Origin: Verrucomicrobiia bacterium
GTDB taxonomy: Bacteria; Verrucomicrobiota; Verrucomicrobiia; Limisphaerales; UBA1319
Assembly: GCA_963664225.1 (NCBI GenBank)
Contig: OY760937.1
Span: 3,616,001-3,680,000 of the forward strand
Reading direction: 5' to 3'
DNA length: 64,000 bases
Made by a program: the position numbers and the translations under genes. Below the pieces are notes generated by a model. The model saw only the letters and a list, made by a program, of their open reading frames with translations. It was not told the origin of the DNA and did no database searches. Of the stretch, positions 31,038-36,058 are shown in pieces (positions within the stretch are counted from its first letter, which is position 1; each line of letters begins with the position of its first letter).

Positions 31038-31311
31038 ATGAAGTATTTCCAAATCATCTTTTTCAGCCTGGTTCTTGCGGGGCTTTCAGTGTTGGCAGAA
31101 CCGGCAGCCAGACCGCCAGGCGAGGTCTTCGGCATTCAAAGGTCTCATGACGCAGACCTGTTGGTGCTTCTGGATGGAAGTCGATTGACGGGCACGCTTC
31201 TGAACAAAACCTTCGCCTTGAGGACGGCCTATGCCCCATTGAAGTTCGAGAGCGGGATGCTGGCCGGAATCGATTTGGAGAGCGGTGACCAAAAGGGCGA
31301 GGTCATTTTAA
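31038..31311 (+). pseudogene. 5' fragment of a secreted FGE-sulfatase (SUMF1) domain protein, interrupted
   Basis: Signal peptide; ...EVIL joins in frame to TVNNNRF at 34820+ once the IS, intron and one TTTAA copy are removed. Confidence 0.85.
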
Positions 31312-32843
31312 CCCGAACTCCGAAGTTAGGTCGGTTTTTTTAGGGAACCGCTAACCCCTCCGGTCATATTCCGCCCCCTCCGAAAGCTTGCCGGGCTTCC
31401 GGTGGCACCAACTTCGGCGACGCGCTTTTCAACCAGTTCAACGTGGTTTCTATCAACGGCTTGTGTTTAGCCAGTCCACCCCAGGCCGCCGAGAGCCTCA
31501 CCACCACATCACGCCCCATCGTTCCCAAGAGGGCTCCCGCCAGAAAAACCGTCGTCCGCAATGTTCCTGGCTGGCGGTATGGCTGGGTTGGAGTGGTCTG
31601 ATGCTGGTAAAGACTCAGCAGGTTGAATGTGAAGAGCACCGCCAGAAACGCCGACTCGGTGGCGAAAAACGATTTCAGGCAAAAACCGTTGGCAGCCAGA
31701 TCATTCTTCAGCTCCTCGATCCGCTGCTCGATGGTGGCCCTTCCGTTGTAGTCCCTCCACAGTTCCAGCGCGCCTTCACTTCGGTTGGTGACGCACACTC
31801 GAAAGGTGTAACCGGGCACATCAATGAGCTTGCGACCCAGAGCCTCCTTGTCTTCCCTGATCCGCTCCCGCAGCACCACGAATCGCCGGGCAGTGGACCA
31901 GCCAAAGAGTTGGGCTCTAAACTCCCCCACGGCATGATTTTCATCGATGGCTTTCCAGTTCTGGATTCCCACGCAATGGTATTTGATCGTGGAGGTCATG
32001 CGCGCCACCACAATGTAGGTTAATTTGCGCATTTCCAAAAACGTCACTAACGCCTCATCGAAGAACCCGCTGTCGGCACGCACGCACCGAATCCACGTTC
32101 CCTCGGGCAACAGGGCCAATGCCTCCTGCAAAAACGGCACCACCCCGCGCGCGGCTCCGGTGTTGCCGCTGCGCAACCATCCATGCAGGATAAACGGCGC
32201 TTCGGCCAGCACCGCCAGGAGCGGATGATGGCTCTTGCGCCCCTTGCGGCGTGGATTGTACCCCTTGGCAGCCCCCTCCTGCGAACCCTCCCGGCAGAAC
32301 ACGGTCGAATCCAGATCCAACGAGAAGCCTGCCTTGGGGCAGGCCAGCAGATTGAGCAGCCATCGCCAGAGCGGTCGCCAGAACGCTTCGATGTGGCCCT
32401 GGCCAAAGTGCAGGAAGAAGTTGCGGATGGTGTCATCGCCCGGGAAACGTTCCATCCCCAGCATGGCGTGCAGAACATGATCGGCACGCAGCCACTGACA
32501 GTGGGCAAAGCGGCGTGCTCCCGCCACCACAGATACGATAAAACTGGTCAGCGTATGGGCTAGAGGAATGGCATTAGGTGAAGTGGGCGCGGCAAACGGC
32601 AAGCACCGCTGCACCGCCTGCGCATAGCCGATCTGACCCAAAAAGGTTATGAATGAAGCCAGACCGCCGAAGGGGGTTATGGCCTTGGGAGTCTCATCCA
32701 GATAGAGCTTGGCTTGGCCGAAAAGAGCGCTAATTTCGACTGGGGTCGTTTTGTGCGAGTCTGAAGCGGGCTTGTTTAGCATCAAACCCTATTGCCTCAG
32801 AAGGTTGCGCATTGCGACCTCTTTTTCTATCTCGGAGTTCGGG
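31312..32843 (-). mobile_element. IS1380-family insertion sequence
   Basis: 12-bp perfect TIRs CCCGAACTCCGA (31312-31323) / TCGGAGTTCGGG (32832-32843); TSD TTTAA at 31307-31311 and T(32844)+TTAA(34820-34823). Confidence 0.92.
31364..32782 (-). CDS. IS1380-family DDE transposase
   Basis: LDLDST, GYNP..HPLL, RADSGF, YNGRATIEQRIEELK. Confidence 0.92.
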   Translation of the reverse strand: MLNKPASDSHKTTPVEISALFGQAKLYLDETPKAITPFGGLASFITFLGQIGYAQAVQRCLPFAAPTSPNAIPLAHTLTSFIVSVVAGARRFAHCQWLRADHVLHAMLGMERFPGDDTIRNFFLHFGQGHIEAFWRPLWRWLLNLLACPKAGFSLDLDSTVFCREGSQEGAAKGYNPRRKGRKSHHPLLAVLAEAPFILHGWLRSGNTGAARGVVPFLQEALALLPEGTWIRCVRADSGFFDEALVTFLEMRKLTYIVVARMTSTIKYHCVGIQNWKAIDENHAVGEFRAQLFGWSTARRFVVLRERIREDKEALGRKLIDVPGYTFRVCVTNRSEGALELWRDYNGRATIEQRIEELKNDLAANGFCLKSFFATESAFLAVLFTFNLLSLYQHQTTPTQPYRQPGTLRTTVFLAGALLGTMGRDVVVRLSAAWGGLAKHKPLIETTLNWLKSASPKLVPPEARQAFGGGGI

Positions 32844-32844
32844 T

Positions 32845-34819
32845 GTGCGCCAGTGAAATTGGTAGCCTCGTGGGTGAAAGTCCCGCCGGTCGAATTAGAC
32901 GGTTCACGACCGAAATGCAGCGTCCGGGACGAGGCCGTGAGGCCGAACCACAAGCGGGACGCTGAAAGAACTGTCGGGTCGTAACGAAAGTAAACCTCAT
33001 CAAATGAGCTCCGAAACCGAAATAACCGGTAAGCCGAGCCGCTACCCGAACGGCGAAGGCAGAAACGCGGCGTCATCAAATCGTCAAATGGGCGCTGTTG
33101 ATTCCGGCGGAGTCAGCGAGGGCGACACGACAGGAAGGGAAACCAAGGTAAGCTGGGAGATCTCTGGAGGCGGGGCGATAAAGCCTCAACCGCCGGTGCA
33201 AGGAGGAACACCCTCCGAGGCCGCACGGGCAGCCAGAGAAGTCGGAGTCTTCCATAGTAGCGAAGAAGCTGGGGCGACCAAAACCCCGGCGGAGCCAAGG
33301 GAAGGCACTTGGATCGAAGCGAATCAAAACAGCGAGGGACAGGGAGATGGCCTTGAGGGAGTGGAAACACTTTTTCAACGGATAACAACCCCGATAAAAG
33401 TTCAAAAGCTGCAGCGAGCGCTATATTGCAAAGCCAAGGCTGAGCCGAAGTATCGGTTTTACAGCCTCTACGGAGAACTGCTGCGGAAGGACGTGCTGGA
33501 AACGGCAATGGCCTCCGTGGCGCACAACAATGGCGCGGCTGGGATCGACGGGCAGACATGCGACGTCTATCTTGCCAGCGACGAAGCCTGGGACCAATGG
33601 CGGAACCAACTGCTGGAGGAGTTACGCACGAAGAAGTATCGGCCAAGCCCGGTGAAGCGTGTGTATATACCAAAAGGAGACGGGAAGCTGCGACCCCTGG
33701 GCATCCCGACAGTGAAAGACCGGGTGGTGCAGACAGCGGTGGTGATTGTATTGCTGCCGATTCTGGAAGCCGATAGTCATCCGAACAGTTACGCCTATCA
33801 TCCCAAACGCAATGCCCACCAAGCAATGGAGGCGATCAAGAAGGCTACGCTGACAGGACGCGTCGAAGTTATAGACGCGGACTTAAGCGGGTATTTTGAC
33901 AGCATTCCCCACAGGCGTTTGTTGCGCATAGTGGCCAAGCGGGTCAGCGATGGAACAATTCTCAAGCTGATCGCAGGATGGCTGCGCGCGCCCGTGAATG
34001 AACCGCAAAGCGACACAGGGAAAGGCGGGACAAAGGGGGGGCAAGGTCAGAATCGACGGGGGACTCCGCAAGGCGGGGTTGTATCGCCGATTTTAGCCAA
34101 TGCATACCTCAACCAGTTGGATTGGGAAGTCAACGAACGCTGCGAACTCAAACCCGTGATGGTGAGATACGCGGATGATTTCGTGATACTCGGACAGCCG
34201 GGGCAGGGACGGGAACTGATGGAACGACTGGAACGATGGCTGAAGCAACGCGAGTTAGTGCTCAACGAGAAGAAGACCCGCTTGGTGGACCTCCGCCAGG
34301 ATGGCATCAAATTCTTGGGATTCGCGCTAACAATGCGACAGGGGAAGGGGAAATGGAAATATCCGCATGTGGAACCCCATCCCAAGAGCCAGAAGAAGTT
34401 TCGAGACGGGATTCGGGAGAAACTCAACCGAAGCACGCTATGGCGTGATATCGGAGAGGTGATTCCCGAGCTCAACAAGAAACTCAAAGGTTGGAAGGGT
34501 TACTTTCACTACGGGAACAGCACCAAGGTGATGGGCCAGATGAACGAATACGTCAGCAGCAAGTTACAACGATGGTTGTGGCGCAAACACGGATGTAGTC
34601 GGGCGCAATGGTCCACATACCCCAAGGAGGATCTCTATGAGCGTTATGGTTTATACCAAATGCCGGAATATGCGGCATGGAAACGATGACGTCGAAGCGA
34701 TGCAACGTATGATCCCCGGAGAGCCGGATGCGGGAAAACCGCCTGTCCGGTTCGATGAGGGGCGAAATGCGACGGTCATTGGCCACGGCCATTCAATCCG
34801 TCCATTTCGCCTACTCTAC
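32845..34819 (+). mobile_element. Group II intron (IIB-like RNA, endonuclease-minus IEP)
   Basis: 5' GTGCG; EBS2 33009-33014 and EBS1 33044-33050; domain V GAGCCGGATGCGGGAAAACCGCCTGTCCGGTTC (34721-34753); domain VI ending CTACTCTAC. Confidence 0.93.
33361..34689 (+). CDS. ltrA: Group II intron reverse transcriptase/maturase (ORF open from 33004; true start uncertain)
   Basis: GIDG, RPLGIPTVKDRVVQ, DLSGYFDSI, GTPQGGVVSPILAN, YADD, FLGF, maturase X (GWKGYF); no HNH domain. Confidence 0.92.
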   Translation: METLFQRITTPIKVQKLQRALYCKAKAEPKYRFYSLYGELLRKDVLETAMASVAHNNGAAGIDGQTCDVYLASDEAWDQWRNQLLEELRTKKYRPSPVKRVYIPKGDGKLRPLGIPTVKDRVVQTAVVIVLLPILEADSHPNSYAYHPKRNAHQAMEAIKKATLTGRVEVIDADLSGYFDSIPHRRLLRIVAKRVSDGTILKLIAGWLRAPVNEPQSDTGKGGTKGGQGQNRRGTPQGGVVSPILANAYLNQLDWEVNERCELKPVMVRYADDFVILGQPGQGRELMERLERWLKQRELVLNEKKTRLVDLRQDGIKFLGFALTMRQGKGKWKYPHVEPHPKSQKKFRDGIREKLNRSTLWRDIGEVIPELNKKLKGWKGYFHYGNSTKVMGQMNEYVSSKLQRWLWRKHGCSRAQWSTYPKEDLYERYGLYQMPEYAAWKR

Positions 34820-36058
34820 TTAACCGTCAACAACAACCGATTCTCTGGATTCCTTGAAGATCCGTTTTTTATCATTCAATCACCTACCGGCCAACAGACG
34901 CAAATACGGCGGGAAAAAGTCGGCAAGGTCGTCTTTGCCAATCACAGCGCGGCGCCTGCCGGGATGCGACAAGGTCACTATATACGCCTTAAAAATGGCG
35001 ACTGGTGCAGCGGCGAGATGACATCGGAGTCTCTGACTTTAACAACTCCAGGCGGTAAGGAATCGTTCGATAGGATGACCATCAAATCGCTTGTATTCAC
35101 AGCGAGCACCCCTCCGCTCGCCATCGTCACGCCGCGCACGGGCGGAACCGTTCAAGGCAAATTGGACGTGGAAGACATATCGATACAGTTGGATGTGGGG
35201 CCGGTGATCGTCATTTACAGGGATAAGATTCAAAGCATTAGCGATGAGTTTTCCCCGGTTCCCACCAGCGCAGCCGCACTCACCGCTTCTCATGAAGCCG
35301 ATGCTCCAACGCAATCGGGCAGGATCGCATCCCAGCCAGGAACCACGAACATCGAAGGAATGGTTTGGATTCCAGCCGGCGAATTCAACATGGGCAGCCC
35401 CATCGACGAGGCGGGACGCGATGGAGACGAGGGACCAGTGACCCATGTGATCATTCCGCACGGTTTTTGGATGGGCAAATGCGAAGTGACCCAGGGCGAA
35501 TACCAGGCGGTCACGGGAAAGCGCCCGAGCAACGCCAGAGGCGAAACGAACGGACCGGTTGAAAAAGTAAGCTGGTACGACGCGATGCAGTATTGTGCCC
35601 AGCGAACACAGCAGGAGAATCTGGCGGCGAAACTGCCTGAAGGCTATGCCTATCGTCTGCCCACCGAGGCCGAATGGGAATATGCCTGCCGGGCGGGGAC
35701 ATCCACGCGCTATTGTTACGGTGACGACAAGGGCGAATTTCGACTGGGCGAATATGCCTGGTTTCTGCGCAATGGCGGTTCGATGACCCACCCCGTGGGA
35801 CTCCTTAAGCCCAATGCCTGGGGCCTCCATGACATGCACGGCAACGTTTGGGAGTGGTGCTTTGACCGCTGGCAGAGCATCCTGCCGGGCGGCAGCATCA
35901 CCAACCTCCCGGTTGCCGGCGAAGGTTCTCTGCGTGTGGCGCGCGGCGGTTCCTGGCTCTATGAAGGGAAGGCATGCCGGTCCGCCAACCGGGATGATTA
36001 CGGCCCATCAAACCGTTGCAGCGATGTCGGATTCCGAGTCGTTCTGGCCCCGCTTTGA
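34820..36058 (+). pseudogene. 3' part of the FGE-sulfatase (SUMF1/EgtB/PvdO) domain protein
   Basis: FNMGSP, EVTQGEY, PVEKVSW, RLPTEAEWEYACRAG, DMHGNVWEW, RGGSW, GFRVV. Confidence 0.88.

Follow-up and report, generated by a model that had tools for sequence, protein, structure and literature searches.

A group II intron without an endonuclease domain that probably homes to the ends of IS1380-type elements and miniature inverted-repeat transposable elements in a Verrucomicrobiia genome

The window analyzed here is a stretch of 64,000 nucleotides from a Verrucomicrobiia bacterium (assembly GCA_963664225.1, contig OY760937.1, positions 3,616,001 to 3,680,000 of the forward strand); coordinates are window positions unless marked as genome positions. 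Within it, a host gene for an FGE-sulfatase domain protein is broken by an insertion sequence (IS) of the IS1380 family, and a group II intron stands at one end of this IS (Table 1). In an initial annotation of the locus, the intron had been placed one base beyond the IS end, where it splits the TTTAA target duplication. This placement was borne out by the terminal inverted repeats and the duplication, as well as by the host gene itself, since excision in silico of the IS, one TTTAA and the intron restored a continuous host frame of 502 aa (31038-36058). With the duplication split by the intron and the frame restored, we conclude that the IS arrived first and the intron second.

The intron has the 5' GUGYG and 3' AY boundaries of bacterial mobile group II introns, and these boundaries are the same in 19/19 copies in the genome. 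In an Rfam scan (cut-offs of 49 bits for RF02005 and 40 bits for RF00029), domains I to IV were matched by RF02005 at 32877-33122 with 54.9 bits, and domains V and VI by RF00029. The protein encoded by the intron matched PF00078 (RVT_1; 1.8e-34), PF08388 (GIIM maturase; 1e-13) and TIGR04416 (357 bits; cut-off 300). Only reverse transcriptase and maturase families matched it at E <= 0.001, with no endonuclease or DNA-binding domain among them. Moreover, only about 25 residues follow the maturase match, and the protein thus has no endonuclease domain. As for the IS, members of the IS1380 family are described in ISfinder as having short terminal repeats starting with CC and a duplication of 4 to 5 bp. 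Fittingly, we found 12-bp repeats starting with CCCGAA and a 5-bp duplication at 5/5 IS copies, and the transposase scored well above the cut-off of 180 bits for NF033539.

Table 1. Features of the intron, the insertion sequence and the interrupted host gene (window positions; EBS, exon-binding site; IBS, intron-binding site; a dot means no strand)
Feature	Position	Strand	Evidence or remark
Group II intron, 1975 nt	32845-34819	+	GTGCG start, CTAC end; Rfam match; 19 identical genome copies
EBS1, ACCCGAA	33044-33050	+	Loop of GCCG/CGGC hairpin placed there by Rfam model (variable loop in consensus)
IBS1, TTCGGGT	32838-32844	+	7/7 pairing with EBS1; last T is first base of right duplication copy
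CTCCGA, earlier EBS2 call	33009-33014	+	5' strand of conserved domain I helix with 33110-33115
Proposed EBS2, CCGAAAUAA	33017-33025	+	Hypervariable internal loop directly downstream of CTCCGA helix strand
Proposed IBS2, positions -18 to -10	32827-32835	+	Putative; 7/9 with proposed EBS2 at this IS end
Reverse transcriptase/maturase gene of intron, 447 aa	33346-34689	+	YADD motif; ATG taken from homologue alignment starting at residue 1
Intron domains V/VI	34719-34819	+	RF00029, 49.3 bits; AGC triad; bulged A at 34813
IS1380-family insertion sequence, 1532 bp	31312-32843	-	5 identical genome copies
Terminal inverted repeat, transposase 3' side, 12 bp, CCCGAACTCCGA	31312-31323	.	Sequence
Terminal inverted repeat, transposase 5' side, 12 bp, TCGGAGTTCGGG	32832-32843	.	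Sequence
Transposase gene, 473 aa	31364-32785	-	NF033539 (IS1380 family), 227 bits; PF13701
Target-site duplication, left copy, TTTAA	31307-31311	.	Sequence
Target-site duplication, right copy, T then TTAA after intron	32844 and 34820-34823	+	Sequence
Host gene, 5' part (FGE-sulfatase domain protein), broken by IS	31038-31306	+	Restored frame
Host gene, 3' part	34824-36058	+	PF03781 match; restored frame

In a further step, we searched the genome, a single contig of 5.78 Mb, for other copies and their sites. The intron is present in 19 full-length copies, all 100% identical, and the IS in 5. All 19 introns have the same 13-nt 5' flank, TCGGA(G/T)TTCGGGT, an agreement far beyond chance, followed on the 3' side by TTAA (9/19) or TAAA (10/19). 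Judging from the 19 identical copies, the intron is probably active or was so very recently. A motif scan of the genome for the target gave 59 matches, and a miniature inverted-repeat transposable element (MITE) of 162 bp was then delimited by BLAST. Thirteen introns stand at ends of this MITE (8 at one end type and 5 at the other) and four adjoin the IS, three of them at its transposase-5' end and one at the opposite end. Removal of the intron left a perfect 5-bp duplication, mostly TTTAA or TTAAA, in 16/17 of these element-borne copies. Since other elements have duplications such as TTGAG and TTTAT, the T at position -1 derives from the target and not from the element. The proposal of the initial annotation that an IS1380-type repeat plus the first duplication base is targeted by pairing of EBS and IBS thus holds for the genome as a whole, with the same flank at 19/19 copies and 17 of them at element ends; its choice of the IS1380 element as target was correct for four copies, but the main target is the MITE. 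None of the elements carries an intron at both ends. Two MITE ends are defective within IBS1, as a terminal C is missing from one and the other reads TACGGG, and neither is occupied.

The two other copies are at solo sites, consisting of the 13-mer followed by TAAA without a recognizable element. Both a partner repeat and a transposase were looked for near these sites, and neither was found. The solo sites may be either relics of element ends or chance sites; one of these introns lies about 20 nt past the stop codon of a host gene for a 4Fe-4S protein. A scan for sigma-70-like promoter sites at one MITE-intron junction and at the IS-intron junction gave no hits.

The element of 162 bp contains no gene, is about 74% self-complementary and is flanked by 5-bp duplications; with its terminal repeats and many copies, it fits the description of a MITE. 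Its terminal repeats (CCCGAAATCCGA...) are one position off those of the IS and extend to at least 16 bp. We found 19 uninterrupted copies and 3 interrupted ones, 2 of the latter by the IS1380 element and 1 by an element of the IS1634 family. MITE copies diverge by up to 7%, whereas all introns are identical. The IS1634-family element (1.86 kb, NF033559 with 329 bits, 6 genome copies) lies near the AT-rich center of a MITE at genome 264554-266580, and two MITEs hold an IS1380 element at their central TTTAA (genome 828002-831675 and 2984655-2988328). The center of the MITE is thus an insertion hotspot for two IS families. The last two loci are nests of three layers, in which a MITE holds an IS1380 element with an intron at one IS end. 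The orientation of the IS relative to the MITE is the same in both nests, and the introns are at opposite IS ends, both on the plus strand of the genome. A terminator-like hairpin with a T-run is present inside the IS of the window (32802-32820, plus strand), 12 nt upstream of the terminal repeat and 24 nt upstream of the intron. MITE ends have no such hairpin, and it is hence no part of the homing site.

We then examined the pairing between the intron and its target. The EBS1 of the initial annotation, with its full pairing to the last seven exon bases, stood: the Rfam model places it in a hairpin loop. Homologues for comparison were taken from a set with 75-77% protein identity (L061-L065) and from a relative of 695 nt, 5 of which had a 5' flank. 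The EBS1 loop sequence differs in each of these 5/5 flanked homologues, yet pairs 7/7 with the last seven exon bases. EBS1 is thus confirmed by direct covariation.

The same folding of domain I did not favor the EBS2 of the initial annotation, CTCCGA. This motif is complementary to TCGGAG, but it is one strand of a helix with 33110-33115 that belongs to the Rfam consensus and is paired in 7/7 aligned relatives, with one compensatory change. Four helices were tested in 7 aligned sequences against 500 shuffles and slid controls: 99.3% of the cells were paired and 3 pairs showed compensatory changes, a result reached by 1/500 shuffles, and the slid controls were 25-51% paired. A better fit is the internal loop at 33017-33025, to which we assign EBS2 with moderate confidence. 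Against positions -18 to -10, this loop pairs 9/9 at the MITE end type that bears 8/13 copies, 8/9 at the other MITE end type and 7/9 at each IS end (the 8/9 and 7/9 being hand counts from the flank sequences), and it leaves a linker of 2 nt to IBS1. If CTCCGA nevertheless were the functional EBS2, it would pair with TCGGAG at -13 to -8, and the target would be exactly the 12-bp repeat and one T. Such a scheme gives 6/6 Watson-Crick pairs at the IS ends and 7/7 at the MITE ends (TCCGAAA with TTTCGGA), and, among 7 aligned relatives, the U-A pair that gives CTCCGA its complementarity to the target is unique to the intron of the window. However, CTCCGA is paired within its helix in 7/7 relatives regardless of the exon sequence, and the segment that varies between lineages is the downstream loop, with its 9/9 pairing at MITE ends; we therefore regard this scheme as unlikely. 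A T is found at +1 (IBS3; T34820 in the window) in 19/19 copies, from which EBS3 is predicted to be an A. EBS3 was looked for in the alignment and not located there, one candidate column being ambiguous.

Sequencing data were also inspected. Four contig-based sequencing runs break at repeat borders and show neither empty sites nor spliced junctions. A metagenome run (X6) covering window positions 31324-34751 contains a variant IS and a variant intron with 7 differences each, in which EBS1 and the proposed EBS2 are unchanged. In this run, the IS end is also where one contig stops and a second one begins.

The copies are unevenly distributed between the strands: those on the plus strand are at genome 2.99-5.61 and 0.05-0.95 Mb and those on the minus strand at 1.66-2.19 Mb. 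The gene dnaA is located at genome 2.99 Mb. GC skew stays positive over the arc that leads from about 3.7 Mb past position zero to 1.3 Mb; it turns negative at 1.45-1.75 Mb and is close to zero in the stretch between. Long open reading frames are biased to the minus strand at 1.2-3.0 Mb and to the plus strand over the arc from 3.2 Mb past position zero to 0.4 Mb. Placing the origin at dnaA and the terminus at 1.3 Mb, we classified by strand the valid homing sites, defined as the 13-mer followed by a T at +1, of which the genome has 50. With this inferred origin and terminus, 26 sites lie on the lagging-strand template, with 18 occupied, and 24 on the leading-strand template, with 1 occupied (Fisher p = 1.4e-6). 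In other words, 18/19 copies are on the lagging-strand side (binomial 7.6e-5), and the permissive sites, filled at 18/26, are close to saturation. This strand pattern points to retrohoming at the replication fork, a route that would be available to an intron without an endonuclease. As a separate observation, the GC skew of this genome is odd: about 3.4 Mb of the plus strand are G-rich, the skew is close to zero for another 2 Mb or so, and its cumulative curve fails to return to zero; this implies either very unequal replichores or many rearrangements.

The strand pattern could also be explained by selection for co-orientation with host transcription, or by later rearrangement, rather than by priming at the fork. 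Indeed, genes are mildly co-oriented with the same halves of the genome, and the GC-skew map is atypical. However, the gene strand bias, at about 0.1 to 0.3, is too weak to yield 18/19, and a replication bias of introns without endonuclease has been demonstrated experimentally (PMC4615759). Co-orientation or rearrangement is thus a distinctly improbable source of the pattern.

We therefore favor, with a probability of roughly 0.85, a model in which the intron, lacking an endonuclease, homes by RNA pairing to the junction between an IS1380 or MITE end and its target, by a lagging-strand route. The intron RNA would recognize the junction formed when an IS1380-family transposon or the 162-bp MITE inserts in a target starting with TT, usually TTTAA or TTAAA. 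The partners of EBS1 would be the first T of the duplication and the six terminal-repeat bases before it. EBS2, for which 33017-33025 is the likeliest position, would pair with -18 to -10 inside the element, leaving the 2-nt linker, and EBS3, the predicted A, would pair with the second T of the duplication. The RNA would then reverse splice between duplication bases 1 and 2, so that the terminal repeat is kept whole. Since the sequence at one end of an element recurs at the other end on the opposite strand, each element offers one site on the lagging-strand template. The intron might exploit the replication fork, with its single-stranded DNA and its nascent primers on the lagging strand, and by this route only the end on the lagging-strand template would be filled.

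Several observations weigh against this model. The copy at genome 2,986,270, 4 kb from dnaA, would have the wrong strand with an origin at dnaA or to its right. The replication map itself is weak, as GC skew is near zero at 1.75-3.7 Mb and the implied replichores measure about 1.7 and 4.1 Mb. Eight permissive sites are unoccupied, and 2/19 copies have no recognizable element. The perfect identity of the 19 copies could owe in part to assembly polishing, which is countered by a contig depth of the intron of about 22x that of the unique flank in one sequencing run (X3). The proposed EBS2 has two mismatches at the IS ends, where CTCCGA pairs 6/6. Lastly, the covariation of EBS and target that the initial annotation proposed as a check was seen for EBS1 in the homologues, but these gave no clear or consistent pairing for IBS2, with a single sampled site each.

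Other routes of entry appear less compatible with the data. In DDE transposase chemistry, a short stretch at the target is single-stranded after strand transfer, and the insertion point of the intron falls within the duplication, which corresponds to this stretch. Retrohoming might thus be coupled to transposition, with entry at the fresh 5-nt gap and the 3'-OH of the gap as primer. However, a fresh insertion would have gaps at both ends, yet only one end is ever filled and which one depends on the position in the genome; moreover, the MITEs are older than the introns. We consider this coupling very unlikely. That the intron was instead a passenger, moved with a transposing MITE or IS, is scarcely credible even though 17/19 copies adjoin a transposon end, since the intron stands beyond the terminal repeat, with the duplication divided by it, and so arrived after each transposon insertion, since it is found at four kinds of end plus two solo sites, and since the MITEs vary by up to 7% while the introns are all identical.

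Group II introns of class C (IIC) insert after terminator hairpins or attC sites, with a short IBS1, a DNA hairpin and no EBS2; they occupy intergenic sites of low host cost, and their proteins have no endonuclease domain. The intron of the window resembles them in its intergenic, low-cost sites and in its protein. It differs from them in its 7-nt EBS1 and its 9-nt EBS2 candidate. Recognition by DNA shape in the style of class C, with the palindromic MITE or the hairpin near the IS end (32802-32820) as signal, is suggested by the self-complementarity of about 74% in the former and the terminator-like form of the latter, but it can be given next to no credence, since the IS ends and the solo sites have no hairpin in common, both MITE ends are used, and the pairing of 7 nt by EBS1 and 9 nt by EBS2 is unlike that of class C introns.

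We next compared the intron with its relatives. Close homologues (75-77% protein identity) were found at unrelated sites, and two of them adjoin host genes and not transposases. The specificity for IS1380 ends therefore represents a retargeting in this lineage. Homologues at sites unrelated to IS1380 ends had been named by the initial annotation as a finding that would speak against its proposal; the proposal survives, since their EBS1 is changed to match those sites. Sixty related genomes were searched with the whole intron, and four then with its 5' part and with the IS, which was found in none. The best intron matches in related genomes were one of 74%, ending at a contig end, and the 695-nt copy, which has no protein gene. 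The sole genome of the same genus (93% complete, 230 contigs) gave no match. In a tblastn search of plasmids with the intron protein, every match was below 60% identity. Relatives that share about 42% protein identity are matched by another Rfam family, RF02003, and no Sinorhizobium was among the plasmid relatives of these proteins at E <= 1e-100.

Two further observations concern other introns. On a Bradyrhizobium chromosome (L084, L088), distant relatives with about 43% protein identity, matching RF02003, occur as head-to-tail tandem introns, as has been reported for the Sinorhizobium intron RmInt2. The genome analyzed here also contains another family of group II introns, about 1.97 kb long, in 4 copies that are 99-100% identical and similar to the intron of the window only in short stretches (74-79%). 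These copies are at genome 5161411-5163382 (+), 1676532-1678503 (+), 2329487-2331458 (-) and 5604127-5606098 (-), with an approximate 5' boundary. Their 5' flanks share ...TCTTTGAG..., which is not an IS1380 end, and their orientations fail to match the replication pattern, with about 2/4 in agreement.

The closest parallel is RmInt2. All seven RmInt2 copies of Sinorhizobium are within the left or right inverted repeats of ISRm17 (PMC4615759, PMC5894124), and experiments published in 2014 showed that RmInt2 homes to both repeats and is biased to the lagging strand (PMC4615759). The same lagging-strand bias has been found by experiment for RmInt1 and RmInt2 (PMC5894124, PMC4615759). The authors of the RmInt2 study argued that targeting both repeats provides twice as many sites and ensures that one of them is on the lagging strand (PMC4615759). 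In our genome, both element ends are targeted as this strategy requires (3 + 1 for the IS, 8 + 5 for the MITE). The likeness extends to a protein without an endonuclease domain, to targets formed by the repeats at both IS ends, so that one is on the lagging-strand template, to a 2-nt linker (-9, -8) between IBS2 and IBS1, experimental in RmInt2, to tolerated IBS2 mismatches and to the presence of several copies (PMC4615759). The initial annotation had thus overrated the novelty of the system, for which RmInt2/ISRm17 is a precedent from 2014 (PMC4615759).

There are also differences. RmInt2 sits inside the repeat, whereas the intron of the window lies 1 nt outside the 12-bp repeat, within the target duplication, and leaves the repeat whole. 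It targets the IS1380 family, mostly through its MITE, and is present in 19 copies against the 7 reported for RmInt2. Unlike RmInt2, it has a T as IBS3, which predicts A-T pairing, and no head-to-tail copies were seen. RmInt1 of S. meliloti likewise lacks an endonuclease domain, shows lagging-strand bias and is housed in another mobile element, but it disrupts the transposase gene of its host element, ISRm2011-2, whose spread it is said to block (PMC5894124), whereas the intron of the window spares both the gene and the repeats. Literature searches turned up no report of a group II intron inserted at an IS1380 end or at a junction of transposon and duplication, RmInt2/ISRm17 being the only precedent found. 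The homing strategy is therefore already known from RmInt2/ISRm17, and what differs here is a modest twist, namely, insertion outside the repeat, an intact transposon, MITEs as the dominant target and nearly saturated permissive sites.

One might go further and see the position one base outside the repeat as an adaptation, within a cooperative system of three layers (IS, MITE and intron), perhaps with entry into a fresh transposition gap. Here, sparing of the repeat would keep the IS and the MITE mobile, so that new homing sites would keep arising. We hold this view only tentatively and consider it rather unlikely. If true, the homing site would exist in neither the transposon nor the host before the IS1380 transposase joins an element end to a target starting with TT, and the relation would be the opposite of the IS-silencing role that has been proposed for RmInt1 and RmInt2.

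This genome provides a natural experiment for the idea developed with RmInt2 that an intron without an endonuclease gains from a target that recurs in inverted orientation at the two transposon ends. A single genome here offers fifty candidate sites for scoring, and the filled ones obey the lagging-strand rule almost perfectly. It also indicates that MITEs can serve as the main reservoir of homing sites and that a homing site can straddle the junction between transposon and host and thereby spare the transposon. While no new field is opened by these findings, they can help in understanding the coexistence of retroelements with DNA transposons and in annotating genomes rich in repeats.

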